A DNA stretch of 64,000 nt from positions 96,001 to 160,000 of the forward strand of contig JBMORA010000063.1 of assembly GCA_049320885.1 (NCBI GenBank), in the 5' to 3' direction. The translations under genes were made by a program, and so were the position numbers. The DNA comes from Thermodesulfobacteriota bacterium (GTDB lineage: Bacteria > Desulfobacterota > Desulfobacteria > Desulfobacterales > SURF-7). This document shows, one piece after another, positions 2,927 to 41,496 of this stretch (its first letter is position 1; each line of letters begins with the position of its first letter). The notes beneath the pieces are model-generated. The model had not been told where the DNA came from, did no database searches, and saw only the letters and a program-made list of their open reading frames with translations.

Positions 2927-3874
2927 TCAGGCAGGATTCGCCCGGACCACTCCGGCGGCGGCCATGATGTCCGGGACGGTCTCCTCCTTGCCGATGGCCA
3001 TGATGTGGACCCCGTCGCAGATCTTCTCCTCATGAATCCGCCGGATCATGCGGCCGGCGATTTCGATGCCCTTGGCCAAGGCGCCGCCCTTGGGCGCGGC
3101 GGCCATTTCGTCGATCAGTTCCTGGGGCACGTTGACGCCGGCGATGTTCTTGTTCATGAAGCGCGCCATGGGCGCGGAGGTGAGCAGGATGACGCCGGCC
3201 AGGATTTTCACCGGGAATTGGCGGGCGTACTCCATGAAGGCCTTGAGCCTGTCCAGATCATAGACCGCCTGGGTCTGAATGAATTCGGCGCCGGCCTCGA
3301 TTTTTTTTTCGAACTTGATCAGCTGGGGCTCCAGCGGCTCGGCCTCGGGTGTGACAATGGCCCCGGCGCAATAGGACACCTCGCCGTCCAGATCGTTGCC
3401 CCCCAGATCCTTGCCCTTTTCCAGGGTGCGGATGGCGGCCACCAGTTGGCTGGAATCCAGATCGAACACCGGTTTGGCCTGCTTGTGGTCCCCGAGCATG
3501 ACCGAGTCGCCGGTCAGACAAAGCACGTTGCGCACCCCCCGGCTCCAGGCGAACAAGAGGTCGGCCTGGAGGGCCAGACGGTTGCGGTCGCGGCAGGTCA
3601 TCTGCAGGATGGGCTCGCCGCCCTTTTCCTTCACGAGGAGGGCGCCTCCAAGGGAAGGATACCGCATCACCGAACTCTGGTGATCGGTGAGGTTCATGGC
3701 ATCCACCTTATCCTTCAGCAAATCGATGTGATGGGTCATCTTGTCCAAGTGGGCGCCCTTGGGCGGAGCCAGTTCACAGGTGACCACGAATCTGCCGGAA
3801 ACAAGCGCTTTTTTGAATTCAGAAACCATGGCTCGTCCATCCTTTTCCGAAACGGTTCGATTGACGATCGTCAT
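2927..3874 (-). CDS. metF: 5,10-methylenetetrahydrofolate reductase MetF (alternative start 3829)
   Basis: VVTCELAPPKG, MTCRDRNRLALQ, LCLTGD, KKIEAGAEFIQTQ, GVHIMA. ATGA overlap with the metV stop. Confidence 0.92.
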   Translation of the reverse strand: MTIVNRTVSEKDGRAMVSEFKKALVSGRFVVTCELAPPKGAHLDKMTHHIDLLKDKVDAMNLTDHQSSVMRYPSLGGALLVKEKGGEPILQMTCRDRNRLALQADLLFAWSRGVRNVLCLTGDSVMLGDHKQAKPVFDLDSSQLVAAIRTLEKGKDLGGNDLDGEVSYCAGAIVTPEAEPLEPQLIKFEKKIEAGAEFIQTQAVYDLDRLKAFMEYARQFPVKILAGVILLTSAPMARFMNKNIAGVNVPQELIDEMAAAPKGGALAKGIEIAGRMIRRIHEEKICDGVHIMAIGKEETVPDIMAAAGVVRANPA

Positions 3875-4527
3875 GCGTCGGCCTTATTTTCAAAATGGCC
3901 GGGTTTGGGCTCGCCCAGATAATTCCGGGGGCCGAAAAGCCGGCGCATGGAATCCAGCCGGTCCAACGCTTTCAGGCGGTTGTAGATCAGGGTCCAGGCA
4001 CAGTCCTTGTTCTTGTCGATCTCGCATTTACCCTTGTCGGTTCCACCGCAGGGACCGTTCACCAGGCCTTTGTGGCAGGAAGTGACCGGGCAGATCCCGC
4101 CGGTTTCGCCGATGATGCAGGTGCCGCACTGGGTGCAGATTTCCTGGAACCGGCCGGCGGCGGTTTCCTTGCCGATGAACAGCGTGTCCAGAGCCGGAAT
4201 GACATTCTTCCCGATCTGCCTGGCCAGGGTCTGGACGCCGAAGGCGCAGCTCATCACCAGCAGGGCCGTGGCCTGCTGAATGCCGGCGTCGCATTCCCGA
4301 AGCATTTCCAGGGTCAGGTTGTCGCAGGCCACCGGCACAACGGTCTGACCGGTGACCATTTTTCCGGCCTGGGACAGCCGTTCCTTCATGGCGGCCACCT
4401 GCTCCGTTCCGCCGGTGCGGGTGAGGGTCGCGCAGGTGCCGCAACCGATGATGAAAATGCGGTTGAAATCCGCCAGAAGCCGCGTCAGTTCCGCCTCCGG
4501 CTTGGGCTGGGTGATGGATCGAATCAT
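3871..4527 (-). CDS. metV: MTHFR accessory subunit MetV (Cys-rich Fe-S/Zn protein)
   Basis: GCGTCAT, CAFGVQ, CTQCGTC, GGICPVTSCHKGLVNGPCGG..GKCE..CAW. ATG at 4527 follows a GGAGAG RBS. Confidence 0.9.
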   Translation of the reverse strand: MIRSITQPKPEAELTRLLADFNRIFIIGCGTCATLTRTGGTEQVAAMKERLSQAGKMVTGQTVVPVACDNLTLEMLRECDAGIQQATALLVMSCAFGVQTLARQIGKNVIPALDTLFIGKETAAGRFQEICTQCGTCIIGETGGICPVTSCHKGLVNGPCGGTDKGKCEIDKNKDCAWTLIYNRLKALDRLDSMRRLFGPRNYLGEPKPGHFENKADA

Positions 4528-4531
4528 GATG

Positions 4532-7500
4532 TCATCTCCTCTCTTTCTCCAGGTCGCACCGCAGGCAGCGATAGGCTTCCCGACCGGCTTCCTCCGCGCT
4601 GACAAAGCCTTTTTCAACTTCGCGGAAGTCCCTGACGCGCTCACGCGGTTGCTCCAGTTCGACCTGTATGCGCGGTTTTTCCGCCGCTGATTCCTCCTCC
4701 AGAGCCAGACCGGCGTCGACGGGTGTGCGCGTTTTTTCGTCGATGATGGTGATGCGGCCCGTGTCACCGCTCAAAAAACGGTGAACGGCTATGGCCGCCC
4801 GTCGTCCCGAGGCGATGGCGGAGATCACGGTGCTGGGACCGGTGGTGAAATCGCCGCCGGCGAAAATACCGGGTACATTGGTGGACAAACGGTTGGCGTC
4901 TACTTCCAGGCTGCCCCAGAGGGAACGCTCGATCTGGCTGTCCTTGGAAAGAAAGGAAATGTCCGGGGCCTGACCGATGGCGATGATCACCGCGCCGGCT
5001 TCCACCTGCCGGATCTCGGTCTCGTCCAGGCTCAGGCGCGAGCGTCCGTCGGCGTCATATACGGTTTTGCTGCGCGCGAATTCCATGCCGGCCACCCGGC
5101 CGTTGTTCCGCAGGATGGATTTGGGCGCCCACATGGGATGAATGGTGATCCCTTCCTCCTCCGCCTCCTCGATGTCCTTGACCCAGGCCGGCATTTCCTG
5201 AACGCTTCGGCGGTAATAGATCTGCACGTCTTCCGCACCCATGCGCAGAGCCGTCCTGGCCGCATCCAGGGCCACATTGCCGCCGCCGATCACCAGCACC
5301 TTGCCGCCCAGGGGCACGGATTTGCCGGTGCGGACGGCCGTCAGGAACTGAAGGCCGTAATGCAGTCCCGTTACCCCCTCCCCTTCTCCGGCGATGCCCA
5401 TGCGCATGCTGGCCTGGGCCCCGGCGGCGATGAAGACCGCGCCGTACCCTTCGGCCATCAAATCATTGACCGTATGTTTGGCATCGATGGGAGCATTGTA
5501 GCGGATATCCACCCCGCAGTTTGCAATGTAGGCGATTTCCTGCTCGATGATCCGCCGCGGCAGCCGGAATTCCGGCACGGCGATCCCCAGCATGCCGCCG
5601 CCCCGGTCCTGGGATTCGAACACCGTGACCTTGTACCCCGATTTGGCCAGAAAATAGCCGCAGGTCAGTCCGGCGGGGCCTGCCCCCACCACGGCCACGG
5701 TCTGTTTTCGGGTGACGGGAAAGGGGTTCCGTTCGGGACCGATGTGCTCGAAATACCAATCCGCGGCAAAACGCTTCAGGGACCGTATGGCCACCGGATC
5801 ATCCAATTCGCCGCGCCGGCATTTGGTTTCGCAGGGATGGATGCAGATCCGTCCGCAGACGGCCGGAAACGGGTTGCGCTCCCGGATGATCTCCACCGCC
5901 TGCCGGTACTGGCCGCGGGCCACTGCCGCCACATAATTGGGGACATCGATGCCCGCCGGACAGGCATGCTGGCAGGCGGAAATGACCATGGCGTCGCAGA
6001 CGGCGCCGGAACAGCGATGTTCCCGGATATGATCCTCGTATTCCTTGGCAAAATATCGCAGGGTGGAAATGGCCGGCTTGGCGCAGGTCTGGCCGAGACC
6101 GCAGAGGGAGGTCTCCGTGACGGTGGCGCCGATTTCGCGGATGCGGTCCAGATCCGTCGGGTTTCCCTGACCGCGGGTGATGCGTGTCAGGATTTTCAGG
6201 AGCTGGGTGGTTCCCAGACGACAGGGCGCGCATTTGCCGCAGGATTCGGACTGGGTGAATTCCAGAAAAAAACGGGCGATTTCCACCATGCAGTTGTTTT
6301 CATCCATCACCACCATGCCGCCGGATCCCATGATGGCCCCGATCCGCTGGAGGGTGTCGTAGTCTATCGGAATGTTCAGATAATTGGCGGGCACACAGCC
6401 GCCCGAAGGTCCGCCCATCTGCACGGCCTTGAACTTCCGGCCCTTGGGAATCCCGCCGCCGATGTCAAAGACCACCTCGCGGATGCTGACGCCCATGGGG
6501 ACTTCCACCAGGCCGGTGTTGTTCACCTTTCCCACCAGGGAAAAGATCTTGGTGCCCTTGCTCTTTTCCGTGCCCACCTCACCGTACCAGGCGGCGCCGT
6601 GGTTGATGATCAGGGGGATATTGGCCCAGGTCTCCACGTTGTTGATATTGGTGGGTTTGCCGGCCAGACCGGCCTGGGCCGGGAAAGGCGGCCGGGCCCG
6701 GGGCATCCCCCGCTGGCCTTCGATGGAGGCCATCAGGGCGGTTTCCTCGCCGCAGACAAAGGCACCGGCCCCTTTTTTCAGGCCGAGATGGAAGCGGAAA
6801 CCGGTACCCATGATGTCCTCGCCCAAAAGCCCCAGGGATTCCATCTGCCGGATGGCGATGGTGAGGTGATCGATGGCGATGGGGTATTCCTCGCGCACAT
6901 ACACATAGCCGTATTCCGCGCCGATGGCGTAGGCCCCGATGAGCATGCCTTCCAGCACGGCATGGGGGTCGCCCTCCAGCACGGCCCGGTCCATGAAGGC
7001 TCCGGGGTCGCCTTCATCGGCGTTGCAGATGATGTATTTCGGCTTGCCCTCGGCTTCCCGGGCGAACCGCCATTTCTGGCCGGTGGGAAACCCCGCCCCT
7101 CCCCGGCCGCGCAGCCTGGCGGCGATGACCTCCTCGATGATCTCATCGGGCCGCATCCGGGTCAGGGCCTTGACCAGGGCCTGATACCCACCGGCAGCGA
7201 TATAGTCCTCGATATCGGTGGGATCGATCTGCCCGCAATTGGAAAGGACCCGGCGCACCTGCTTGCTGAAAAAGGGAATGTCCCGCTCCCGGGGGATTGG
7301 GGCCCGGGTATCCGGGTCCGTGTAGAGCAGACGCGGAACCTGTTCCCCCCGTTTCACGGTCAGGTTGACGATATCCGGCACGTCCCGGGGCTCCACCTGG
7401 TTGTAGAAAATATCCTCCGGCTCGATGTTCATCACCGGACCTTTTTCGCAGAATCCGCGGCAACCGGTTTTTTTGATCACGATCTGATCCGCAAGACCCT

Positions 7501-7663
7501 GAGCCGTGAGTTCCGCCTGCATGGCCTCGATGATCTTGAGGGAACCGCCGGCCCGGCAGCCGGTGGTGCAACAAATCTTGATGACGCGTTTTTCCTTCGC
7601 TTTCCTGTCCTTGACGGCATGGGCCAGGACGGTCAGATCTTCGGGAACTCGTATTTTTTTCAC
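4532..7663 (-). CDS. NuoF/HydB-like NADH/FMN subunit fused to a GltD/NfnB-like FAD/NADPH oxidoreductase
   Basis: N-terminal thioredoxin-like 2Fe-2S (CCTTGC..GCRGFC), LRGRGGAGFPTG, NADEGDPGAFMDR, GAFVCGEETAL, GGPSGG, ESCGKCAPCR, SLCGLG. Then CQHACP..CGRICIHPCE..CRR, GAGPAG, GGGNVALD, YYRRS, RCLRC. Confidence 0.9.
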   Translation of the reverse strand: MKKIRVPEDLTVLAHAVKDRKAKEKRVIKICCTTGCRAGGSLKIIEAMQAELTAQGLADQIVIKKTGCRGFCEKGPVMNIEPEDIFYNQVEPRDVPDIVNLTVKRGEQVPRLLYTDPDTRAPIPRERDIPFFSKQVRRVLSNCGQIDPTDIEDYIAAGGYQALVKALTRMRPDEIIEEVIAARLRGRGGAGFPTGQKWRFAREAEGKPKYIICNADEGDPGAFMDRAVLEGDPHAVLEGMLIGAYAIGAEYGYVYVREEYPIAIDHLTIAIRQMESLGLLGEDIMGTGFRFHLGLKKGAGAFVCGEETALMASIEGQRGMPRARPPFPAQAGLAGKPTNINNVETWANIPLIINHGAAWYGEVGTEKSKGTKIFSLVGKVNNTGLVEVPMGVSIREVVFDIGGGIPKGRKFKAVQMGGPSGGCVPANYLNIPIDYDTLQRIGAIMGSGGMVVMDENNCMVEIARFFLEFTQSESCGKCAPCRLGTTQLLKILTRITRGQGNPTDLDRIREIGATVTETSLCGLGQTCAKPAISTLRYFAKEYEDHIREHRCSGAVCDAMVISACQHACPAGIDVPNYVAAVARGQYRQAVEIIRERNPFPAVCGRICIHPCETKCRRGELDDPVAIRSLKRFAADWYFEHIGPERNPFPVTRKQTVAVVGAGPAGLTCGYFLAKSGYKVTVFESQDRGGGMLGIAVPEFRLPRRIIEQEIAYIANCGVDIRYNAPIDAKHTVNDLMAEGYGAVFIAAGAQASMRMGIAGEGEGVTGLHYGLQFLTAVRTGKSVPLGGKVLVIGGGNVALDAARTALRMGAEDVQIYYRRSVQEMPAWVKDIEEAEEEGITIHPMWAPKSILRNNGRVAGMEFARSKTVYDADGRSRLSLDETEIRQVEAGAVIIAIGQAPDISFLSKDSQIERSLWGSLEVDANRLSTNVPGIFAGGDFTTGPSTVISAIASGRRAAIAVHRFLSGDTGRITIIDEKTRTPVDAGLALEEESAAEKPRIQVELEQPRERVRDFREVEKGFVSAEEAGREAYRCLRCDLEKERR

Positions 7664-7705: not shown

Positions 7706-8194
7706 CTATTCCCCCTGCCGGCCTTCCTTGCCGAAGTAGTTCAAGATACCGGCCACCTTGGGCGGCGAGAGCTTACCGAAATAGTCCCGGTTCACCATCA
7801 TGGTGGGCGCCAGGGCGCAGGCCCCGAGGCAGGCGGCCGATTCCAGCGTGAACTGATAATCCGGCGATGTTTCCCCTTCCTTGAGTTTCAGCTCCTGCTG
7901 CACCATCCGCAGGATGCTCCGGCCGCCCTTGACATGGCAGGCGGTTCCACAGCAGACCCGCATCACGAACTTGCCCCGGGGGGCGAGGGAGAATCCGGCG
8001 TAAAAGGTGATCACCCCCTGGACCTGGGAAGGAAAGATGCCCAGGGCTTCGGCTATCGGTTCCACGGATTCAGGCGGAATAAAACCGAAGGTTTTTTGAA
8101 TGTCCTGCAACAGGGGAATCAGCCCCCACTGCTCCTCCTTGCGGGATTCGATGAGAGCGTTCAGTTTCTGTTGATCGATTTCAGGCGGTTTCAT
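7706..8194 (-). CDS. NuoE/HydC-like 2Fe-2S subunit
   Basis: LIPLLQDIQ..FGFIP, VITFYAGF, CCGTACHVKG, ACLGACALAP. Confidence 0.92.
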   Translation of the reverse strand: MKPPEIDQQKLNALIESRKEEQWGLIPLLQDIQKTFGFIPPESVEPIAEALGIFPSQVQGVITFYAGFSLAPRGKFVMRVCCGTACHVKGGRSILRMVQQELKLKEGETSPDYQFTLESAACLGACALAPTMMVNRDYFGKLSPPKVAGILNYFGKEGRQGE

Positions 8195-10842
8195 GGCGTT
8201 CCCCCTTCCGTTTTTTCAATGCCCACCGGGCAGCAGTTCCAACCCGGGGAAGCCGAATCCATCAGTGGCGTCAGGCCCAGCAGACGGCGGGCCTGATTCG
8301 ATTCTTCCCCCTGGGGCAGCCAGACCAGACCGGACCGCAGCTGCCGGTCAATCCGGACCCGTCCATGCAACGATCCCGCTGGAGAAGTCAACCGGATGGT
8401 GTCGCCCTCCGCGACGCCCCATTGGACGGCATCCTCCTCGGAGACGGCGATGCCTTCCCGGTCCTTGAAAGCGGCGATACGCGGCGACAGTGCCGTGCGC
8501 GTCCCGCTGCCCAGATGATATCGCGGGGATCCGATGACCGCCATGAATGGATATGCGGGGTCCACCGGCTCCTGAACGGAGGTTTTCACGGCTGAAAACG
8601 GGATCGCCTGTTCACCGCCTTCCCGCCTCTGGATCCAAACCAGCTGCCCGCTGCGCGAGCTGCGGGCATACAAGGGCAGCACCTGACCGATTTCAGCCCG
8701 CACTTCTGCCAGGGAGGCGGGCGGGCGCTCGTCTCCCAGATGCCGCGCAAGGGAGATCAGGATCGCGAGATCCGGCCTGGCCTGGCCCGGCGGATCCGCC
8801 GCGGCCGACAGCTGTTGCAGACGGCCTTCCATGTTGACGAAGGCGCCCTCCTTCTCCGAAAAGGCCGCTCCGGGAAGCACGATGTGAGAATCGGCGACGG
8901 TCTCGGTGAGCAGGATATCCTGGGTGACGATAAGTTCGAGTCTGGACAAGGCCGCCTTCACGCGTTCCGGCTGGGGCAGGCTTCGCAGCGGGTTCTCGCC
9001 CATGATGAACATCCCTTTGAGACGGCCCTCCTCGGCCGCCTGAATCATGGCCACCAGATCCAGCCCCGGTTCGGCGGGCAGGTCGGTCCGCCAGACCGCC
9101 TCCCATTCCCTGCGGGCCTCCTTGTCCGCCACCGGCCGCCTGCCGGGCAGGGCATCCGGGACGCTGCCCATGTCCCAGGCGCCCACCATGTTGTTTTCCT
9201 TGGCCGGGATATAGAAACCGGCGCCTTTGTGGGCGATGCTGCCGGTCAGCATGGCCAGGTTGAGCAGCGCATCGACGGTTTCCAGGCCGGAGCGCTGCTT
9301 CAGGATGCCGTCGCCGATCACAAAGGCGATTTTTTTGTGACTCAACAGGTCCACCGCTTTTGCCAGGGATTCCTTTGCAAGTCCCGTCCGCCGGCAGATC
9401 AGCGACAGATCCAGAGCGCCCAGGCTTTCGGTGTATCGCCGGAATCCCTCGACAAACCGTTCCACAAAGGAAGCGTCATGGTTGTTCCGGGCCAGCATCA
9501 TCGCGGCGACGGCATGGACCAGATCCGCATCGGACCCGGGCTGGAGCGCCAGCCATAGAGCGCTGTATCCGGCAAGCTCGGTTTTTCGCGGATCAACGAC
9601 GATGATAGGGGTACCGTTGACGGCGCTGCGTTTGAGATAATATCCCATAACCGGCATGGAATGGGTCGGATCGGCGCCCATCACCAGGATCGCATCGCTT
9701 TTTTCCAGTCCGGCCAGGGAGCCGGCGAAAAAATGAAAGCGCCCGCCGCCGTCAGTGCGATTTTCAATGCTGCTAAGCAGTCGCCGTCCCAGTATGTAGC
9801 CGCCGTTGTCCAGGTTGTTGGTCTTCAGCAGGCTCCGGGCGATTTTTTGAAACAGATAATTTTCCTCGTTGGTGCATTTGGATGACCCCAGGAAAGCAAT
9901 GCTCCGCGGCCCATGGCGTTCCTTCAGCGCCAAAAGCCGCTGCGCCGTTTCCCGCAGGGCGTCGTCCCAGGATACGGCCTCGAGGGTTCCGTTTCTGCGG
10001 ATCAGGGGGTGCACGAGCCTTCTTTCGCTGTTCAGAAAATCATGACCGAAATGTCCTCGCACGCAAAGAGTGGTCCCATTCACGGATTTGGAATCCATGG
10101 CGGGATTGGCCTCAACGATCCTTCCATTGGAAGCACCGAGCCGCAGGCGGCAACCCACTCCGCAGAAGCCGCAGACCGTATCCACTTCCCGTTCGGGGAC
10201 GCCCACGTATCCGGAACGGATGGTCAAGGCGCCGGTGGGACAGACCGCGACGCAGGTGCCGCAGAAGGTGCAGCCGGACCGTTCCAGGGGTCTGTCCTGC
10301 AGGGTCGCCGGATAGGAACGGATGCCCCGCATGGAATAATCGATGGCACCGGTGACCACCAGTTCGTGATCGGCCCGGATGCATTTGCCGCAGAGGATGC
10401 ACTTGGAGAGATCCCGATAGATAAACGGGTTGAGCTGGTCGGGGGTCTTATCGCCGGGCATGGGGTCCAGCCGGATCGCCCCGACACCGAGATCGGCGGC
10501 CGCCCGGCGGAGACCACAACGGTTGCCTTTGTCGCAAACGATGCAGGATTCCGGATGAGCGGCCAGCATCAGGGTAACAATATTGCGGCGATGGGTGAGA
10601 ACCCGGGGGCTGTCGGTCAGAATCGCCATGTTTTGAGCCGCGGGAGTCACGCAGGACGCCAGGAGCCGGCCGCTTTTCTGTTCTTCCACCAGACATACGC
10701 GGCAGGCGCCGAAAGGTTTGAGATCCGGATGATGACAGAGCGTGGGAATGCGGAAACCGTTCTGGACGGCTGCGTCCAGCAGGCTCTCTCCCGGATTGCA
10801 ATGGATGGATTTGCCGTTGATGGTCAGGGTGATGACTTCCAC
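8191..10842 (-). CDS. FdhA/NuoG-family Fe-S molybdopterin-fold subunit lacking the catalytic Cys/Sec (SfrA-like)
   Basis: IPTLC..GACRVC..ASC, HPESCIVC..C, CILCGKCIRADHE, CTFCGTCVAVCP, CGFCGVGC..LCVRG. The active-site segment reads NNLDNGGYIL instead of NNVDHCARL(C/U)H. GTG start follows an AAGGAGG RBS. Confidence 0.85.
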   Translation of the reverse strand: MEVITLTINGKSIHCNPGESLLDAAVQNGFRIPTLCHHPDLKPFGACRVCLVEEQKSGRLLASCVTPAAQNMAILTDSPRVLTHRRNIVTLMLAAHPESCIVCDKGNRCGLRRAAADLGVGAIRLDPMPGDKTPDQLNPFIYRDLSKCILCGKCIRADHELVVTGAIDYSMRGIRSYPATLQDRPLERSGCTFCGTCVAVCPTGALTIRSGYVGVPEREVDTVCGFCGVGCRLRLGASNGRIVEANPAMDSKSVNGTTLCVRGHFGHDFLNSERRLVHPLIRRNGTLEAVSWDDALRETAQRLLALKERHGPRSIAFLGSSKCTNEENYLFQKIARSLLKTNNLDNGGYILGRRLLSSIENRTDGGGRFHFFAGSLAGLEKSDAILVMGADPTHSMPVMGYYLKRSAVNGTPIIVVDPRKTELAGYSALWLALQPGSDADLVHAVAAMMLARNNHDASFVERFVEGFRRYTESLGALDLSLICRRTGLAKESLAKAVDLLSHKKIAFVIGDGILKQRSGLETVDALLNLAMLTGSIAHKGAGFYIPAKENNMVGAWDMGSVPDALPGRRPVADKEARREWEAVWRTDLPAEPGLDLVAMIQAAEEGRLKGMFIMGENPLRSLPQPERVKAALSRLELIVTQDILLTETVADSHIVLPGAAFSEKEGAFVNMEGRLQQLSAAADPPGQARPDLAILISLARHLGDERPPASLAEVRAEIGQVLPLYARSSRSGQLVWIQRREGGEQAIPFSAVKTSVQEPVDPAYPFMAVIGSPRYHLGSGTRTALSPRIAAFKDREGIAVSEEDAVQWGVAEGDTIRLTSPAGSLHGRVRIDRQLRSGLVWLPQGEESNQARRLLGLTPLMDSASPGWNCCPVGIEKTEGGTP

Positions 10843-10961: not shown

Positions 10962-11837
10962 CTATTTCAGCTTGGCGGCGTCCAGATACAATTTCAGCTT
11001 GTCTTCGCCGCCGATGGTGATGATGTGAATGCCCTGGCAAAGATCCTTCAATCCGTTGACGAGGTCGGCGAACAGTTCGATACTGGCCTTCCTCTTGTCA
11101 TGGGCTCCGGCGAGCTTCTTGATGACCCAATCGGGAACCAGTCCGGACTTGAGATGACGATTCAGGAACTGGCCCACCCCGGCTGTTTGGAGAATCATCA
11201 CCTCCGCGATCACCGGAATCCCGAAGGTCTGGGTCTGCTTCAGGAATTTTTCAAAACGCTCCAGGTCGAACACCGGCGTGGTGAGAAAATAACCGGCGCC
11301 CATGCGGGTCATCTCCTCCATTTCCTTGAGCTCGAGTTCCGGCACGTTTTTGCCCCAGGCGGATTCCACACCCGACCCGAGCACGAACTCCGCGGGTTTT
11401 GGAAGGGGTTGGCCGTCCACGGTCTGACCGGTCTTCAAATGCTCCAGAACCGAGGCCAGTTTTCCGGCATCCACATGGAAAAACATCATTTCCTGGAGAC
11501 TGTCGCCGGTAATGCGGTAATCCTCGGTGAATACCAGCAGGTTTTCGACCCCGGACTGATGGGCGCTCAGCAGGTCTTTCTGCAATTGCAGGCGGTTTTT
11601 CTGGCGGGTGGTGGTCTGGTAGATGGCTTCGAAACGGTTCTGCTGGAGGATATCGCAGGTCTTGATGGTATCCCCCACCACGCCTTCCAGTTCAATCTCG
11701 GAGATGGATACGCCGTCCACCCGGCCCCGGATGAGCTTCAGGTTGTCGATCAGATCGTCCGGGCCCTCACCCAAGGGCGACTGCACCTCGGAAGTGACGA
11801 CGAATTTGCCGTTCTTGAGCGCTTCTTTCAATTTCAT
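10962..11837 (-). CDS. Divergent MetF-like (MTHFR family) protein
   Basis: KFVVTSEVQSP, TTRQKNRLQLQ, LVFTED, GAGYFLTTPVFD, GIHIITIG; same length and layout as MetF. Start MKLKEALK follows GGAGG. Confidence 0.8.
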   Translation of the reverse strand: MKLKEALKNGKFVVTSEVQSPLGEGPDDLIDNLKLIRGRVDGVSISEIELEGVVGDTIKTCDILQQNRFEAIYQTTTRQKNRLQLQKDLLSAHQSGVENLLVFTEDYRITGDSLQEMMFFHVDAGKLASVLEHLKTGQTVDGQPLPKPAEFVLGSGVESAWGKNVPELELKEMEEMTRMGAGYFLTTPVFDLERFEKFLKQTQTFGIPVIAEVMILQTAGVGQFLNRHLKSGLVPDWVIKKLAGAHDKRKASIELFADLVNGLKDLCQGIHIITIGGEDKLKLYLDAAKLK

Positions 11838-11903: not shown

Positions 11904-12476
11904 TCACTTCAGTCCCAACAGGCGCGCAACTTCTTCCTTCAACTGGGGCAGGGGCAGGGGTTTGGAAAAGCAGACATCGGCGCCATTGTCCTTCATTTGT
12001 TTGAACTTCTCCTCATCCAGATAGGCGGACAGCACAATGATTTTCGTTTCTCCGGTCTCCGGATTGGATTTGATTTTCCGGCAGACCTCATAGCCTTTGA
12101 TATCCGGCATCATGATATCGAGAATCAGCACATGGGGTTTGAAATGATTGACCTGCAGCCCGGCCTCGAAACCGTCCGAGGCCGAAATCACTTCGTAATC
12201 GTATTCGTCCTCCTCCAATGCCTGGACAAGGGTCTCAACGATGATGGGATCGTCGTCCACCACCAGAATCCGCTTGCGCTGATCCTGCGGCTCTTTCTCG
12301 GGAACGGGAATCCCCTGTTTGGCCATGAAGCTCTTCAGAATCGACAGTTTTATGCGGCGATGGCCGCCCACGGTTTTATACGCCTCGATATGGCCCGAAT
12401 CGATCCAGTTGATAATGGTTTGCGGTGACACATTGCAGTATTTGCTGGCTTTGGCAACGGTCAGGATGTCTTCCAT
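11904..12476 (-). CDS. Response regulator with an N-terminal excisionase-like (HTH_17/MerR-like) DNA-binding domain and a C-terminal REC domain
   Basis: LTVAKASKYCNVSPQTIINWIDSGHIEAYKTVGGHRRI, then ILVVDDD..ILDIMMP..VLSAY..FSKP. Confidence 0.9.
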   Translation of the reverse strand: MEDILTVAKASKYCNVSPQTIINWIDSGHIEAYKTVGGHRRIKLSILKSFMAKQGIPVPEKEPQDQRKRILVVDDDPIIVETLVQALEEDEYDYEVISASDGFEAGLQVNHFKPHVLILDIMMPDIKGYEVCRKIKSNPETGETKIIVLSAYLDEEKFKQMKDNGADVCFSKPLPLPQLKEEVARLLGLK

Positions 12477-12655: not shown

Positions 12656-14500
12656 TCAAGCGGTGGGTTCGTTTTCAGCAGGCGGATGGGAGGGGAGCAG
12701 GATGGTGAAGGTGGTGCCGGAGTCCACGGCGCTTTGCACCTGGATATCACCGCCGTGATCCTTGATAAAACCGTAACACACCGAAAGCCCGAGACCGACC
12801 CCCTTGACGCTTTCCTTGGTGGTGAAAAAGGCGTCGAAAATTTTGGGCAGGTTTTCCTCGCGGATACCCATCCCCGTGTCGGTTATCCGGACCCGGATCT
12901 CCTTGTCGTTGCGGCCGGTTTCCACCGTCAGAACGCCGCCGCCGGGCATGGCGTCACGGGCGTTGGCGATCATGTTGAGAAATACCTGGCGCAGCTGGTT
13001 TTTGGAAGCAAACACCACGCAAGGCTCCGGGCAGTAATGGGGCTCGATGGCGATGTTGTTTTCGCGGAATTGCTTTTCATGCAGGAGCAGGATTTCATCC
13101 AGGATGGTGTTGATATCCGTGGGCTGCCGGATCTCCTGATCCGGTTTGGAAAATGTCAGCATCTTCCGGAGCAGTTCGCTCAAACGGACGGTTTCGGACA
13201 GGGCCATGTCCAGAATTTTGCGGCGACGGTTTCCCGGCTGAATTTCGGTTTTCATCAGCTCCAGGGTGTTCATGATGCCGTACAGGGGGTTGTTCAACTC
13301 ATGGGCCACCTGGGATGTCAGACGGCCCATGGCGGACAGCTTCTCCGCCTGAAGCAGTTGTTCCTGGGTCTGACGCAGACGGCGTTCCATATCCAGGCGC
13401 TCCTTCAGATCCACAAAAATCCCCACGGTGGCCAACTCCTTGCCAGCATCGTCGTATAGAATCGCCGCCGAGAGATTGCCTTCCACGATTTTGCCGTCCC
13501 GTCGCATGTAGACGATGGGATAGGAGCGGAGGCGTCCGGCCCTGTCGTGGTCCGGCCGGCGCAGCATCTGCATGACCTTGCGGGCCATGCCCTGGGGATA
13601 GATTTCCGTTATATTCATCCTGCCGATGACCTCCTCGGTCTTATAGCCCAGGATTTCCTCCGCGGCCCGATTCCAGATCAGCATCCGGCCGCGCATGTCC
13701 GCGGCCATGACGGCATTCGGCGAACTGTGGATGATCTTGTTCAGGAAGTCGTTCACTTCCCGGATTTCCTTCTCCATCCGTTTGCGCTGGGTCTGGTCGA
13801 CGATGATGCCTTCGTAACCGATCACATTGCCCTGTTCATCGCAACGCACATGGCCCGTGAGCAGGACGGGAATGGGACTGCCGTCCCGGCGCTTGAATTC
13901 GATTTCGTATTCAACCACCTGCCCGGCCGTTTCAATTTCCTGCTGGAAGCGTTTCCGGTCTTCCGGCCGCAGGTAGAGATCCTGCAGAATATTGATGTTC
14001 AGAAATTCTTCCTTGCTGTCATAACCGAACATGTGGAGAAGCGCCTGATTGGCGTCCAGGAATTTCCCTTCCTTGCTGCTGATGTAGACGCCGCACCCCA
14101 CGTGCTCGAAAAGACGCCGGTAATCCCGTTCCGTGGCCTTCAGCTTTTCGGTTCTCTGTTTTTCCTGGGTGATATCGCGATAAACGCTCAGTTTGAGGAT
14201 ATCGCCGTCTGCTTTTTTCAGCGGCAGGTTCATGACATCGTAGCTCTTGTTCAGCCACGGCATATGCAATTCGCGGTGAAACGCTTCGCCGCCGAAAACC
14301 CCTTCCGATTTGCATTCGGCGCAAATCTGTTCGCTCCGGGCAATGAACCGGTGGCATTTTTCACCGATACCCTGGCCGAAATCCCGGATCATGGCGGCAT
14401 TCATGTATTGAATGGTGTAATGGCGGTCGGTGATATAGACGCCGTCCTTCATGGCGTCAAAGACCGAAATCATGTTTTGCAGTTCTTTCCGTATCGGCAT
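12656..14500 (-). CDS. Cytoplasmic multi-PAS sensor histidine kinase
   Basis: Three PAS domains, H-box QVAHELNNPL, NMIANARDA, FDAFFTTK..GVGLGL. Start uncertain (14500 or 14473). Confidence 0.88.
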   Translation of the reverse strand: MPIRKELQNMISVFDAMKDGVYITDRHYTIQYMNAAMIRDFGQGIGEKCHRFIARSEQICAECKSEGVFGGEAFHRELHMPWLNKSYDVMNLPLKKADGDILKLSVYRDITQEKQRTEKLKATERDYRRLFEHVGCGVYISSKEGKFLDANQALLHMFGYDSKEEFLNINILQDLYLRPEDRKRFQQEIETAGQVVEYEIEFKRRDGSPIPVLLTGHVRCDEQGNVIGYEGIIVDQTQRKRMEKEIREVNDFLNKIIHSSPNAVMAADMRGRMLIWNRAAEEILGYKTEEVIGRMNITEIYPQGMARKVMQMLRRPDHDRAGRLRSYPIVYMRRDGKIVEGNLSAAILYDDAGKELATVGIFVDLKERLDMERRLRQTQEQLLQAEKLSAMGRLTSQVAHELNNPLYGIMNTLELMKTEIQPGNRRRKILDMALSETVRLSELLRKMLTFSKPDQEIRQPTDINTILDEILLLHEKQFRENNIAIEPHYCPEPCVVFASKNQLRQVFLNMIANARDAMPGGGVLTVETGRNDKEIRVRITDTGMGIREENLPKIFDAFFTTKESVKGVGLGLSVCYGFIKDHGGDIQVQSAVDSGTTFTILLPSHPPAENEPTA

Positions 14501-14523
14501 CGATTTGCGGAATTCGCCGGGCC

Positions 14524-16500
14524 TCAAGACCCGGCGGTGGCCCCTTTTTCCAGGGCCACCATGCCCATCTGATAACAACGCAGGCAGCGGGAGGCCTCCT
14601 CCAACGCCTGGGGCAATGTATAACCGGTTTCAATTTCAGCCAAACTGCCGACCCTCTCTTCCAACGGAATCGTCGGCATGGGCACCCGCTCCTCGGACGG
14701 CAATATCGGTCGCGGGGCCTCGCCTTCGACCCCCAGCATCCTCATCAGCTTGTCCATTTTTTCAGCAGCGGAAAGGCTGACGGGTTGATGGTTCAGGTAT
14801 TGATCGATGCTTTCGGCCGCTCGTTTACCGTGAGCGCAGGCGTCCACGATGGTCAAGGGACCGCTGTAAACATCTCCGGCGGTGAAAATCCAGGGCACAT
14901 GGGTCTGATACGTGTCCGGATCCGCCACGATGGTTTTCCAGCGGGTCAGCTGGACCCCTTCCACCCCGTTCAACACTGTCAGATCACTCTCTTGTCCGAT
15001 GGCCTGAATGATGATATCCGCCGGGACCACGAATTCGGAACCTTTCACCTCCCGGGGGCTTCTCCTGCCGCTGGCATCCGGTTCGCCCAGCTCCATCCGG
15101 ATGCATTCCATCCCGACGACCTTGCCATCTTCCGCGATGATTTGTTTGGGCGCGGCCAGGAACAAATATTTGACGCCCTCGATTTCCGAATCGTGAACCT
15201 CATGGGGATCAGCTGGCAACTCCTTTTTGGTCCGGCGATACACCACGGTTACCTCCGCGGCGCCCTTTCGGATGGGGGTTCGGCAGCAGTCCATGGCCAC
15301 ATTGCCGCCGCCCACGACGACAATCCGCTTGTCTTTCAAATCATAACATTGGGAGATCACGCAATCGCGAAGATAATCCACGCCGGTGATGAACCCCTCG
15401 TAGCCTTCATCCTCCCCCTTGGCCCCCATTTTTTTGGATATATGGGCGCCGATGGAAATCAGAACCGCCTGGTACCCCTGGTCCCGAAGCATGGGGATGG
15501 TCAGCTCCTTTCCGATGGGAGTGTCATAGCGGATCTCAACGCCCATGCCGCGAACAAAATCCACTTCCCGCTGCAGCACTTCCTTGGGAACCCGGTATTG
15601 AGGGATACCCACGCCCACCATGCCGCCGGAAACCGGCAGCGACTCGAAAACCGTCACCCGATAACCCATGAGCGCCAGATAGTAGGCCGCGGACAGTCCG
15701 GCCGGTCCGGCGCCGATAACCGCCACTTTTTCTTCCCGGAGGGATTTGGCCGGATTCCCGGGTTTCGCCACCGGGTGGGTATCCTCGAAATCCCAGGCGA
15801 AGCGTTTCAGCTTGCAGATGGAAACCGGTTTGCCGGAGTACCCCCGCCGGCAATTGGTTTCGCATGGATGGAAACAGGCCCGGCCCAGGGAGGCCGCCAT
15901 TGGGCTGGCCTCCCGAATAATTTTCAGTGATCCCAAATGGTTACCTTCATGAATACACTCAACGAAACCAGGGATGTCCATCCCCGCCGGACAGGCGGAA
16001 TAACAGGGCGCGGTCCATCTGGCGGCATACCGCGTGTCGGTGCGAAGCGGTTTCCTGGAATGAATCAGGTCCATGAATTCGTTCTTGAAATACCGCAGGG
16101 CGTGCTGAATCGGAATGGGAACGGTTTTCCCGATATAGCATTTCGACCCCATGGATATGTAATCGGCCAGTTCGGCAAGCCGGTTCAAATCCTGTTCGTC
16201 GCCCTGCCCCGCCACGATTTTCCTCAGGATCGTCGCCATGGCTTCCGTGCCCATCCGGCAGGGGAAACATTTGCCGCACGAGGCTTTCCCGGCCTCCTCG
16301 ACGTAGTGAAGACACATATCCGCCATTCGTACGGAATCCGCAAGCAGAATGATTCCCGCCCATCCCATGAATGCGCCGATCCGGTTTTCCGGATCAAATT
16401 CCTTTGGCAGCTTGATGGCGGGGGCATTCAGGCGTTTGCCCGGTTCCATCCCCCGATTGTCAATGACCTCGTTGTTCCAAGAAGAAAATAGTACTTCCAT
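14524..16500 (-). CDS. SfrB-like FAD/Fe-S NADPH oxidoreductase (NuoF-type 4Fe-4S domain plus GltD-like domain)
   Basis: N-terminus VLFSSW..IDNR..FMGWAGIIL recalls Geobacter SfrB. Also SCGKCFPCRMG, APCYSACP, GAGPAG, GGGNVAMD, VYRRT, RCLRC. AGGAGA RBS. Confidence 0.85.
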   Translation of the reverse strand: MEVLFSSWNNEVIDNRGMEPGKRLNAPAIKLPKEFDPENRIGAFMGWAGIILLADSVRMADMCLHYVEEAGKASCGKCFPCRMGTEAMATILRKIVAGQGDEQDLNRLAELADYISMGSKCYIGKTVPIPIQHALRYFKNEFMDLIHSRKPLRTDTRYAARWTAPCYSACPAGMDIPGFVECIHEGNHLGSLKIIREASPMAASLGRACFHPCETNCRRGYSGKPVSICKLKRFAWDFEDTHPVAKPGNPAKSLREEKVAVIGAGPAGLSAAYYLALMGYRVTVFESLPVSGGMVGVGIPQYRVPKEVLQREVDFVRGMGVEIRYDTPIGKELTIPMLRDQGYQAVLISIGAHISKKMGAKGEDEGYEGFITGVDYLRDCVISQCYDLKDKRIVVVGGGNVAMDCCRTPIRKGAAEVTVVYRRTKKELPADPHEVHDSEIEGVKYLFLAAPKQIIAEDGKVVGMECIRMELGEPDASGRRSPREVKGSEFVVPADIIIQAIGQESDLTVLNGVEGVQLTRWKTIVADPDTYQTHVPWIFTAGDVYSGPLTIVDACAHGKRAAESIDQYLNHQPVSLSAAEKMDKLMRMLGVEGEAPRPILPSEERVPMPTIPLEERVGSLAEIETGYTLPQALEEASRCLRCYQMGMVALEKGATAGS

Positions 16501-16558
16501 TGTTTCTCCTGACCCATCGCTTTCTTTTTTGCATCCGATAATCCGCTTTACCGGGCGA

Positions 16559-16789
16559 TCAGGTTTCGCACGGCGGCGTCGGAGCGATTTGTTGCAGTTC
16601 CCGGGACTGGACCTTGCGAATCCAGTATTTCCCCGCAATCAACGTCCCGATTGCCATGGGTAAATATGCACATAAAAAAACGGTTGTCAATGTTTCTTGA
16701 TCCCGGCTGGCCCAAAAGAGACAGGCCGTCAGCTCGATCAGCACCAGCACATCCAGGAAAACCACAACCAGACGTTGTCGGACAGACAT
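16559..16789 (-). CDS. Small membrane protein (76 aa, 2 TM)
   Basis: AAGGAGG RBS before the ATG; two hydrophobic segments. Confidence 0.7.
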   Translation of the reverse strand: MSVRQRLVVVFLDVLVLIELTACLFWASRDQETLTTVFLCAYLPMAIGTLIAGKYWIRKVQSRELQQIAPTPPCET

Positions 16790-39336: not shown

Positions 39337-39441
39337 TTGCATATTGCAATATGGTCCTTTTTATGATTGTGTTATCTGACTAATATTAATGAATATCATA
39401 CCTGTTGTAACAGTCGGGACCGGCTGTTGCGATTTGTAACA
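39337..39441. promoter_or_regulatory. Candidate enhancer (bEBP) binding palindromes
   Basis: TTGCA-TAT-TGCAA at 39337-39349 and TGTTGC-GATTT-GTAACA near 39425-39441, about 80-180 bp upstream of the sigma-54 promoter. Confidence 0.5.
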
Positions 39442-39459
39442 TCCAGGAAGGATCGAACC

Positions 39460-41496
39460 ATGTCGCTGTTTAAAAAGCCATCAAAAACAGGCGAGACGGC
39501 GCAGCAGGGCGCCGGGGATTTATTGGAGCTGCGCACCCGGGCCAAAAAAGCCGAACTGCCGGAACCGGTATCCACCGTGGTGGGGGCCCAGCTGGATCGC
39601 CTGGAAAGCATGGACAGCTCCAGTCCGGAGTACGGCATCGGCATGGATTATGTCGCTTTTGTGCTGGCCCTGCCCTGGAACCATTTCACCGAGGACAATC
39701 TGGATCTGAAACGAGCGGAAACCATACTGGAAAAGCAGCACTTCGGGTTGCGGCACGTGAAGGAACGGATTCTGGATTTTCTGGCGGTGCGGGCCCTGTC
39801 TTCTCTTCAGGCGTTTCGAATTCTGGTGGTGGATGACGAGCCCATCGCCCGCGCCAACCTGGAGCATATTCTGCTGAAGGAGGGATACCTCGTATCCACC
39901 GCCTCCAACGGCCTGGAAGCACTGGGTCTCATGGAGCGACAGGAATTCGAGCTGGTTCTCACGGATCTGAAAATGGAAAAAATGGACGGCCTCCAGCTGC
40001 TGGCAGCCGCACGGAAAACCGCGCCGCATACCGAATTCATCATGATCACGGGGTATGCCACGGTCAACAGCGCCGTGGACGCTCTCCGGAAAGGGGCCAG
40101 TAACTATCTGGCCAAACCCGTGGATCTGAACGAATTGCGCGCCATGGTCCGCCAACTGCACAACCGAAAAAAGCATCTGCGTCTGACGCGCAGCCCCATC
40201 CTGCTGTTTTCAGGTCCTCCGGGAACCGGCAAGACCTCCCTGGGACGGGCCATCGCCGAGGCCCTGCAGCGGAAATTCGTGTGCATTTCCCTGGCCGGAC
40301 TCCGGGACGAGGCGGAACTGCACGGCCACCGCCGCACCTATGTCGGCGCCATGCCCGGCAGGCTGATCAACGAGATCAAACGTCTGGGGGTTAAGAATCC
40401 GGTTTTCATGCTGGACGAGATCGATAAGATCGGCCAGGATTTTCGCGGCGATCCGGCGGCGGTGCTGCTGGAAATCCTGGATCCGGAACAGAACAGCCGC
40501 TTCACCGACCATTATGTGGATTTGCCCTTTGACTTGTCCGGGGTCATGTTCATCGCCACCGCCAACATGGTGGACAAGCTGCCCGGCCCCCTGCGGGACC
40601 GCATGGAGAATATCCCCTTTTCCGGGTATACGGAAAAAGAAAAACAGGAAATCGCCGCGCATTATCTCATTCCGCGCCAGTTACGGGAACACTCCCTGAT
40701 ATCCCGCAACGTGGGGTTCAGTCCGGAATCGATTCTGCGGGTGATTCGCAATTATACCCTCGAGGCCGGCCTGAGAAACCTGGAACGGGAAATCGCCGCC
40801 ATCTGCCGGAAGCTCGCCCGCCTCTGCCTGCAGAATCAGGATGAAACCTCCAGCAAACCGCTGCTGGTCGATGAAAGCCTGACGGAACAACTCCTGGGGC
40901 CCCCCAAATACACCCACCAGGCAGCCGCCGCCGGACACCGGATCGGTGTGGCCACCGGACTGGTCTGGACCGAATTCGGCGGGGAAATCATCTTCGTGGA
41001 AGCGGCTTGCATGCGCGGCAGCAAGCAATTGATCCTCACCGGCTCTCTAGGCGATGTCCTGCGCGAATCCGCCCAGACCGCCATGAGCTATATCCGCAGC
41101 AACGCCCCGGGTCTGGGGATTGACCCGGATTTTTTCGACAACAGCGATATCCACATCCACATTCCCGCGGGTGCGGTATCCAAGGACGGTCCGTCCGCGG
41201 GAGTCACCATCCTGGTGGCGTTGATTTCCCTGATCACCCGGAAACCCGCCCGCCGGGACGTGGCCCTCACCGGCGAAATCACCCTCAGCGGCCGAATCCT
41301 TTCGGTCAGCGGTATCCGGGAAAAACTGCTGGCGGCCCAGCGGGCCGGAATCCGGACCGTTATCCTGCCCAAAGGGAATGAACTGGACATCGGCAACCTG
41401 GACCCCGACCTGATCAGCGGAATGAAAATCATTACGGCTGGAGAAGTCAATTCCCTGCCGGAACTTGTGCTGCTGGATACCGAAACCGCCGACTGA
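39460..41496 (+). CDS. lon: Lon-family ATP-dependent protease lacking the N-terminal domain, with a receiver domain inserted in the AAA+ module
   Basis: LPW..DLKRAETILEKQHFGLRHVKERILDFLAV, then REC, then PILLFSGPPGTGKTS, GHRRTYVGAMPG, MLDEIDK, KDGPSAG (Ser) and GIREK (Lys). Confidence 0.9.
   Translation: MSLFKKPSKTGETAQQGAGDLLELRTRAKKAELPEPVSTVVGAQLDRLESMDSSSPEYGIGMDYVAFVLALPWNHFTEDNLDLKRAETILEKQHFGLRHVKERILDFLAVRALSSLQAFRILVVDDEPIARANLEHILLKEGYLVSTASNGLEALGLMERQEFELVLTDLKMEKMDGLQLLAAARKTAPHTEFIMITGYATVNSAVDALRKGASNYLAKPVDLNELRAMVRQLHNRKKHLRLTRSPILLFSGPPGTGKTSLGRAIAEALQRKFVCISLAGLRDEAELHGHRRTYVGAMPGRLINEIKRLGVKNPVFMLDEIDKIGQDFRGDPAAVLLEILDPEQNSRFTDHYVDLPFDLSGVMFIATANMVDKLPGPLRDRMENIPFSGYTEKEKQEIAAHYLIPRQLREHSLISRNVGFSPESILRVIRNYTLEAGLRNLEREIAAICRKLARLCLQNQDETSSKPLLVDESLTEQLLGPPKYTHQAAAAGHRIGVATGLVWTEFGGEIIFVEAACMRGSKQLILTGSLGDVLRESAQTAMSYIRSNAPGLGIDPDFFDNSDIHIHIPAGAVSKDGPSAGVTILVALISLITRKPARRDVALTGEITLSGRILSVSGIREKLLAAQRAGIRTVILPKGNELDIGNLDPDLISGMKIITAGEVNSLPELVLLDTETAD

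Follow-up and report, generated by a model that had tools for sequence, protein, structure and literature searches.

A NuoF-GltD fusion protein as a candidate electron supplier to MetVF in a Desulfobacterales genome

In the methylenetetrahydrofolate (methylene-THF) reductases (MTHFRs) that Yi et al. (2021) termed X-type or group III, nuoEFG-like genes lie upstream of metVF, as in MetFV-NuoEFG of Dethiosulfatarculus sandiegensis; the type is said there to be widespread in Desulfobacterales and Chloroflexi, is speculated to bifurcate electrons, and is described as unstudied (PMC8515935). Homologues of nuoEFG likewise lie directly upstream of metV-metF in the DNA analyzed here, a window of 64,000 nucleotides from a Thermodesulfobacteriota bacterium of the Desulfobacterales (assembly GCA_049320885.1, contig JBMORA010000063.1, positions 96,001 to 160,000; positions below are counted within the window). 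The nuoF homologue, at 4532..7663 on the minus strand, encodes a protein whose C-terminal half is a GltD-type flavoprotein, and this BfuB/NuoF::GltD fusion is our subject. An original prediction, made from the DNA alone, had suggested that it might be a transhydrogenase and had missed its genomic context, 4 nt upstream of metV-metF. The comparisons reported here suggest that it is most likely an electron supplier to MetVF and not a free transhydrogenase.

The layout of the fusion also has a published counterpart. In the uncharacterized sub-type I BfuB of group A3 [FeFe]-hydrogenases, the B3/B4 clusters give way to a DPD_II domain and a C-terminal flavin adenine dinucleotide (FAD)/NAD(P) domain, for which a second bifurcating FAD was proposed (Zheng and Huang 2024; PMC11406978). 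The Bfu family itself is defined as requiring a C-terminal 2x[4Fe-4S] ferredoxin domain (IPR017896), which holds B3/B4 (Schut 2022; PMC9304861). Structures are available for the StnABC/NfnABC transhydrogenases of S. ovata (8oh5), C. saccharolyticus (9bov), and T. sibiricus (9n5u) (PMC7483475, PMC10482914, PMC11829005, PMC12018979), and the FAD module of Stn is described in that literature as non-bifurcating. SfrB of the Geobacter SfrAB NADPH oxidoreductase is named in PMC7483475. In Moorella thermoacetica (MetVF-HdrABC-MvhD) and in HdrL systems, as here, a flavin/Fe-S module adjoins metVF (PMC8578096, PMC5736913, PMC2702500), there often with a fused GltD-type nucleotide site.

The fusion gene has an AGGAGG ribosome-binding site 7 nt ahead of its GTG start, and its parts are as follows.

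4532..7663, minus strand: BfuB/NuoF::GltD fusion, 1043 residues, GTG start (open reading frame [ORF] list, Pfam, alignments, model)
7364..7606, minus strand: thioredoxin-like 2Fe-2S domain, residues 20-100, with B5 [2Fe-2S] ligands C31, C36, C68, and C72 (Pfam PF01257)
6398..7123, minus strand: flavin mononucleotide (FMN)/NAD(H) core and SLBB domain, with bifurcating-type residues A222, M224, F302, and GGPSG at 417-421 (Pfam, alignment)
5996..6292, minus strand: ligands of the B1 [4Fe-4S] cluster (C475, C478, C481, C521) and of the B2/Zn site (C458, H545, C551, C556) (alignment including 7t2r_B)
4553..5983, minus strand: StnC-type GltD module with putative A7-type and A6-type clusters, FAD site, and R700 (alignment, structure match)
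5207..5215, minus strand: YRR motif, residues 817-819, an NADP(H) fingerprint (rule from PMC7596348)

All the elements on which the original prediction had relied were found in the fusion, namely the motifs ADEGDPGAFM (residue 215), GAFVCGEE (300), GGPSGG (417), GGGNVA (793), and YRRS (817), the 2Fe-2S domain, and the C/H..C..C site. Its claim that a GltD flavoprotein replaces the terminal ferredoxin domain was borne out by the domain scan, in which Complex1_51K (the Nuo51 FMN domain; residues 181-350, E 4e-44), SLBB (374-422, E 7e-5, under that profile's own cut-off), and NADH_4Fe-4S (461-545) are followed by Fer4_20 (550-639) and Pyr_redox_2 (655-953). The B3/B4 ferredoxin domain is absent, as the chain contains no CxxCxxCxxxC motif; Pfam gave no Fer4 match in it either. 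Taken with the YRR rule of PMC7596348, the domains point to one chain with an FMN site of NAD(H) type and an FAD site of NADP(H) type, as had been supposed. A chimeric assembly was ruled out, since each of the 120 listed homologues aligns over 95-100% of the fusion.

The N-terminal half of the protein matches A. mobile HydB (7t2r_B) at E 1e-230. The C-terminal half corresponds to residues 103-567 of StnC/NfnA and matches these subunits of the Bfu transhydrogenases (9n5u_A, 9bov_A, 8oh5_C) at E 1e-99 to 4e-96, with NfnB a somewhat poorer match (4ylf_B, 8e-87) and GltD a far poorer one (2vdc_G, 2e-53). In the AlphaFold model (predicted local distance difference test, 85.9; predicted template modeling score, 0.81), residues 560-1039 align structurally to 8oh5_C with a Z of 45.1 (VIA). 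Alignments of the same kind to full BfuB chains reach the module's cluster domain (9mqx_B over model residues 1-624; 9n5u_B to 1043), a weak indication that this domain may overlay the B3/B4 position.

Cluster ligands were compared in 78 aligned sequences, 67 of them taken from the 120 listed homologues and 11 from loci. The ligands of B2/Zn, B1, and the GltD clusters are invariant in all 78, as are the bifurcating-type residues, for which we followed published criteria (Ala and Met near the NADH site, Phe near FMN, and GGPSG; PMC7311640, PMC12018979); in B5, C68 and C72 are invariant and C31 and C36 are kept in at least 90%. The invariant A7-type ligands C568/C607/C611/K630 are spaced exactly like C108/C147/C151/K170 of Csac (C. 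saccharolyticus) NfnA (PMC11829005). Lys630, the equivalent of StnC K170, stands where NfnB has a Glu ligand, and R700 is the equivalent of StnC R239. The C-terminal CxxC (C1033/C1036) is also invariant, and by homology the A6-type ligand set would be C564/C615/C1033/C1036, the first of these lying 8 residues past the last Zn ligand. By these sequence marks the module classes as StnC-type. An NfnB-type bifurcating FAD was rejected for it because the ligand is Lys instead of Glu, and the TIGR01316 score of the fusion is 325 against a cut-off of 472. The original description of the module as GltD/NfnB-like therefore stands as to the GltD family and is refined to StnC-type by Lys630, the C-terminal CxxC, and the better matches.

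The closest kin of the GltD module are SfrB-like proteins (FastTree, support 1.0); our trees are FastTree or quick IQ-TREE trees with weak backbones, from which we claim neither a single origin nor an order of events. Geobacter SfrB itself joins a B1 four-helix domain to a GltD module. The window also contains an SfrB-like gene (14524-16638, minus strand; B1 domain plus GltD, with YRR and no adjacent SfrA), whose product aligns with fusion residues 426-1036 at 37% and differs in lacking an FMN/NADH domain (Pfam) and, as judged by eye, the ligands of the Zn site. The GltD halves of this protein and of the fusion are sisters in the tree, and a similar gene was seen near only one orthologous locus, L024.

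The genes around the fusion lie on the same (minus) strand in the order sensor kinase, response regulator, MetF2, FdhA/NuoG-like gene, NuoE, fusion, MetV, MetF, with gaps from the FdhA-like gene onward of -4, 42, 4, and 41 nt.

2927..3874, minus strand: MetF, catalytic subunit of methylene-THF reductase, starting at 3874 or 3829 (PF02219, E 8e-39)
3871..4527, minus strand: MetV, 218 residues from the ATG at 4527, 4 nt past the fusion stop (PF12225)
7706..8194, minus strand: NuoE/BfuC-like subunit, 162 residues, with C1 [2Fe-2S] ligands (PF01257, E 5e-47)
8191..10842, minus strand: FdhA/NuoG-like BfuA subunit, 883 residues, with A1-A5 cluster motifs retained (Pfam, alignment)
10962..11837, minus strand: MetF2, at the operon head, a divergent paralogue of MetF with 28% identity to it (Pfam, alignment)
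11904..12476, minus strand: helix-turn-helix/receiver response regulator that travels with the cassette (Pfam, neighborhoods)
12656..14578, minus strand: PAS sensor histidine kinase, a frequent companion of the cassette (label read from the sequence itself, not from a profile scan)

This linkage is conserved. Among the best 80 of 580 matches, the first 41 loci (L001-L041) are orthologues at 59-74% identity; MetV is the next gene after the fusion in 38 of the 41, and the remaining 3 end within the fusion gene. Where NuoE (found in 37) or the FdhA-like gene (found in 34) is missing, the locus stands at the start of a contig; MetF2 occurs in 22 and is missing in at least L004, L024, L030, and L040 despite upstream DNA. 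In one locus (L029:2638-3209) MetV is broken into two ORFs. MetF keeps its active-site-region motifs in 32/32 orthologues and its PDB matches are MTHFRs. In MetF2, TT takes the place of MetF's TQ (22/22 orthologues) and the FEKK motif is replaced; we take these residues to have the roles they have in E. coli MetF. Possible roles for MetF2 are those of a non-catalytic subunit or of a folate sensor. Homologues of the sensor kinase (50-68% identity) occur in many loci, and a promoter and terminator scan stayed at chance level (6 versus 4.8 and 17 versus 15.4).

The FdhA-like subunit appears to be a wire without an active site of its own. Its catalytic Cys/His are gone, no CxRxCH motif occurs in 30/30 orthologues, and the position aligned to CARVCH of FdsA is replaced, so that an active formate dehydrogenase of the FdsABG kind was rejected. 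The cluster motifs are kept, including the A3 motif HPESCxxC..C, and a subunit that is catalytically dead yet retains its cluster ligands needs a substrate site outside itself. The chain has no Pyr_redox_2 or Fer4_20 domain (Pfam). One A4 ligand (residue 158) is Asp instead of Cys in 29/30 orthologues, a change that may tune a live branch towards MetV. In the NuoE-like subunit, the Cys motifs are retained in 37/37.

Set beside the described systems, the fusion is BfuB-like in its workings and falls outside the Bfu family, because the definition demands the ferredoxin domain that is absent here. The Nuo51 FMN, SLBB, and NADH_4Fe-4S domains, the bifurcating-type residues, B2/Zn, and B5 are all present, and BfuC and BfuA are encoded in the same operon. 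The replacement of B3/B4 is that of sub-type I BfuB (DPD_II plus FAD/NAD(P) domain, here Fer4_20 and Pyr_redox_2), but the partner is a molybdopterin-family scaffold (the dead FdhA) plus MetVF instead of an H-cluster BfuA, and by its Lys ligand the module belongs with the non-bifurcating StnC type and not with the second bifurcating FAD proposed there; 'nadp' has no match in the main text of PMC11406978. StnABC/NfnABC share with this locus the domain inventory bar B3/B4, the Lys-ligated A7, the C-terminal CxxC, the dead Fdh domain, and the B1-FMN-C1 core, whereas GltD here sits on BfuB and not in BfuA, B3/B4 is missing, one A4 ligand is Asp, and metVF is in the same operon. NfnAB (NfnSL) differs in having Glu where the fusion has Lys630, and no NfnA was found among the genes flanking the fusion (Pfam of the window proteins).

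The most telling evidence of function comes from relatives in which another module takes the place of the fusion. We sampled 120 other class genomes and found a fusion orthologue (at least 66% identity) in 17 and MetF2 in 45; both occur in 16, 3-4 kb apart. The MetF2 region was read in all 29 genomes that have MetF2 but lack the fusion (for G057, in one of its two copies), and the position following MetF2 is filled by an HdrL-type GltD::HdrA in 19, by an HdrA-like flavoprotein without GltD in 5, and by MetVF directly in 1, while nothing was recognized in 1 and a contig edge intervenes in 3; the HdrA label follows from the domain pattern and from neighboring CCG and MvhD genes, with Pfam applied to seven of these loci. 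MetV is next after the module in 14 of the 19 HdrL-type slots and in all 5 of the GltD-less ones, and the same response regulator precedes MetF2 in all 29 regions. Two unrelated flavin modules, one Bfu-type and one Hdr-type, thus alternate before MetVF in one regulated cassette. The Hdr type, as Hdr-MvhD, is a purified partner of MetVF in Moorella (PMC8578096). Of our indirect evidence that the Bfu module works for MetVF, this exchange is the strongest. The Moorella system differs in its HdrA/MvhD chemistry, where BfuBC is found here, and shares only 30-37% identity in MetV and 39-43% in MetF with the window proteins.

A second line of evidence concerns nucleotide specificity. In NfnB, YRR is what binds the 2'-phosphate, and among DsrL enzymes it distinguishes the NADP(H)-specific DsrL-2 from DsrL-1 enzymes, which lack it and use NAD(H) (PMC7596348). 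Among 42 orthologues with the C-terminal half (the window protein, 38 of L001-L041, and L122-L124), 14 have YRR and 28, L004 and L123 among them, have CLE. An impression that YRR is near-universal (118 of the 120 nearest homologues listed) was rejected, as that list is ranked by similarity to a YRR-type query. On the NuoF-half tree the two states are intermixed and their distribution takes a minimum of 8 changes; residues 817-819 also co-vary with residues 865, 875, and 948 across L001-L041 and L122-L124, as if a specificity cassette had been swapped between orthologues. By extrapolation from DsrL-1, CLE would denote an NAD(H) port. If so, two thirds of the family would have two NAD ports and could not be transhydrogenases. 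The alternation of YRR and CLE would be tolerable if both ports are donors.

These considerations lead us to a reading that we favor tentatively and to which we give a little less than an even chance: the fusion would be the pyridine-nucleotide arm of a soluble X-type MetVF methylene-THF reductase, with both ports on the donor side. The complex would comprise the FdhA-like wire, NuoE, the fusion, MetV, MetF, and perhaps MetF2, with the GltD module in the B3/B4 position and MetV standing in for the third-substrate site along the cluster chain of BfuA. Electrons would run from NADPH through FAD, A7, A6, and C1 to FMN/B1, where those of NADH also enter, and would leave from B1 through A1, A2, and A3 (or A4/A5) to MetV, MetF, and methylene-THF. 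The two nucleotide ports would most likely lie on the same side of the reaction, like NADH and ferredoxin in other Bfu enzymes, and donor-side ports are favored because they agree with the wiring known from Bfu enzymes and allow the switch between YRR and CLE. NADH and NADPH would then reduce methylene-THF jointly or alternatively, free of ferredoxin; CLE-type orthologues would take NAD(H) at both ports, and any transhydrogenase activity would be a side reaction. With potentials E' of -280 mV for NAD and -380 mV for NADP (PMC9304861, Table 1; -370 mV is our own variant in the energy calculation) and -200 mV for methylene-THF (PMC8578096), the computed energies of methylene-THF reduction are -15 kJ/mol with NADH and -35 kJ/mol with NADPH, both exergonic.

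Several points weigh against this reading. The physical link between the fusion and MetVF is deduced from gene order, and our literature search, which reached few subscription journals, turned up no biochemistry on BfuB::GltD fusions or X-type MTHFRs. A simple two-port diaphorase would have no obvious need for the bifurcating-type residues, B5, and the Zn hinge, yet all of these are strictly conserved. An Arg lies two residues past CLE in 28/28 CLE types, so CLE might still bind phosphate. With NADP+ as an obligatory co-acceptor, methyl-THF oxidation, the direction that an acetate-oxidizing sulfate reducer needs, would not proceed (+35 kJ/mol); beside this objection stand three further MetV-MetF pairs in the genome (L085, L086, and L084, on G000 contigs C16, C48, and C28). 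Co-occurrence with acetyl-CoA synthase (ACS) is uninformative, as ACS is found in 16 of the 17 fusion carriers and in 100 of the 120 class genomes overall. A complex prediction of MetV with the GltD module and the N-terminal part of the FdhA-like subunit (median 0.31, mark 0.32) gives support to neither side. Two of the three extra MetV-MetF pairs, incidentally, sit behind GltD::HdrA-like proteins of 1400-1500 residues.

The strict conservation of the bifurcating-type residues also fits a ferredoxin-free bifurcating MTHFR, the boldest of the readings, which we consider unlikely. In such an enzyme NADH would be split at B1-FMN-C1, with high-potential electrons passing via BfuA to MetVF and low-potential ones via C1 and the GltD module to NADP+; in reverse, NADPH oxidation would pay for methyl-THF oxidation. 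The net reaction, 2 NADH + methylene-THF + NADP+ <-> 2 NAD+ + methyl-THF + NADPH, is near equilibrium (+1.9 to +3.9 kJ/mol, computed), the A6-type cluster on its 8-residue tether would, in the model, overlay the B3/B4 slot, and the canonical NfnAB encoded elsewhere in the genome (contig C9) could recharge NADPH. The scheme would be unworkable in orthologues with two NAD(H) ports, however, and YRR is missing from two thirds of the proteins counted. In the characterized Bfu enzymes consulted, moreover, NAD is the high-potential partner and not a mid-potential donor, and T. sibiricus NfnABC mutated at B4 retains hardly any bifurcation (PMC12018979), which would leave the GltD clusters to take over that role completely.

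Fainter still are the prospects of Stn wiring in trans, in which the GltD module would dock on A3 of the FdhA-like subunit and NADPH would feed FAD-A7-A6-A3-A2-A1-B1-FMN, with NAD+ as the high-potential acceptor and MetV (or free ferredoxin) in place of B3/B4 at C1. The fusion and the FdhA-like gene do hold all StnABC domains bar B3/B4, and the match of K630 and R700 to StnC, the conserved A3 motif, the kinship with SfrB-like proteins, and the use of reduced ferredoxin by C. ljungdahlii MetVF (PMC8515935) are all in its favor. But the short tether to the Zn site and the B3/B4 overlay favor the C1 side, C1 cannot directly reduce ferredoxin in T. sibiricus NfnABC (PMC12018979), and transfer from NADPH to NAD+ would be futile in CLE-type orthologues if these are NAD-specific.

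A stand-alone soluble NADH/NADPH transhydrogenase merely co-regulated with metVF, the role originally suggested, we consider improbable: both sites do lie in one chain with YRR in the window copy, and the Stn genes of S. ovata adjoin metVF without encoding an MTHFR subunit (PMC7483475), but MetV adjacency is conserved, most orthologues have lost YRR, the genome has a separate NfnAB, Hdr modules take the place of the fusion in the cassette of relatives, and no partner would drive the uphill direction from NADH to NADP+ (uncoupled, +17 to +19 kJ/mol computed at physiological potentials). The rest of the probability falls to co-regulation without a complex or to an unknown carrier.

More distant relatives of the fusion keep other company. 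The other 39 of the best 80 loci comprise 11 more distant fusions and otherwise unfused HydB; neither these 11 nor 8 further distant fusions have MetV directly downstream. The distant fusions (44-54%; L125-L132, L043, L049, L068) precede an [FeFe]-hydrogenase (L125), an intact, above-cut-off FdhA (L126, L128, L049, L068, L043), or NuoG-like genes of ~680-700 residues, and all that were read carry YRR; beside a hydrogenase or such an FdhA, both nucleotides can be acceptors, a point that fits the favored reading. One locus, L047 (MetVF 65% identical, unfused HydB with B3/B4, intact FdhA), was considered as a ferredoxin version and set aside as weak, since two unrelated ORFs lie between metF and nuoE. 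The host genome encodes DsrA and ACS/CODH, in keeping with the favored reading. Elsewhere in the window we observed a Lon protease with an N-terminal response-regulator receiver domain (39367-41496, plus strand) and an NrfA-like cytochrome c nitrite reductase homologue, under family cut-offs (44537-46087, minus strand).

The fusion is real and widespread, and its layout and its gene linkage have each already been put in print, both speculatively. What is new here is that the X-type NuoF is a StnC-type fusion with a dead FdhA partner, that Hdr and Bfu modules are exchanged in one cassette, and that the family is split between YRR and CLE. GltD on NuoF, the loss of B3/B4, the dead formate site, MetF2, and the YRR/CLE states go unmentioned in the passages of PMC8515935 consulted, although its Fig. 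4 and Fig. S6 may show more.

How the methylene-/methyl-THF step of the Wood-Ljungdahl pathway is coupled in anaerobes is a long-standing question, and for the Hdr-type complex of Moorella bifurcation could not be shown with the several carriers tried (PMC8578096). In the operon described here we have a candidate that appears to be soluble and for which all partners (NADH, NADP(H), methylene-THF) are off-the-shelf, and its YRR and CLE orthologues, ~70% identical, form a natural control. It bears on whether a Bfu core works without ferredoxin, which is relevant also to the hydrogenases and formate dehydrogenases that have the same fusion. If the bifurcating reaction proved true, this would be a Bfu enzyme with NADH as the mid-potential donor and a nucleotide replacing ferredoxin, and acetate-oxidizing sulfate reducers could pay for methyl-THF oxidation with NADPH.

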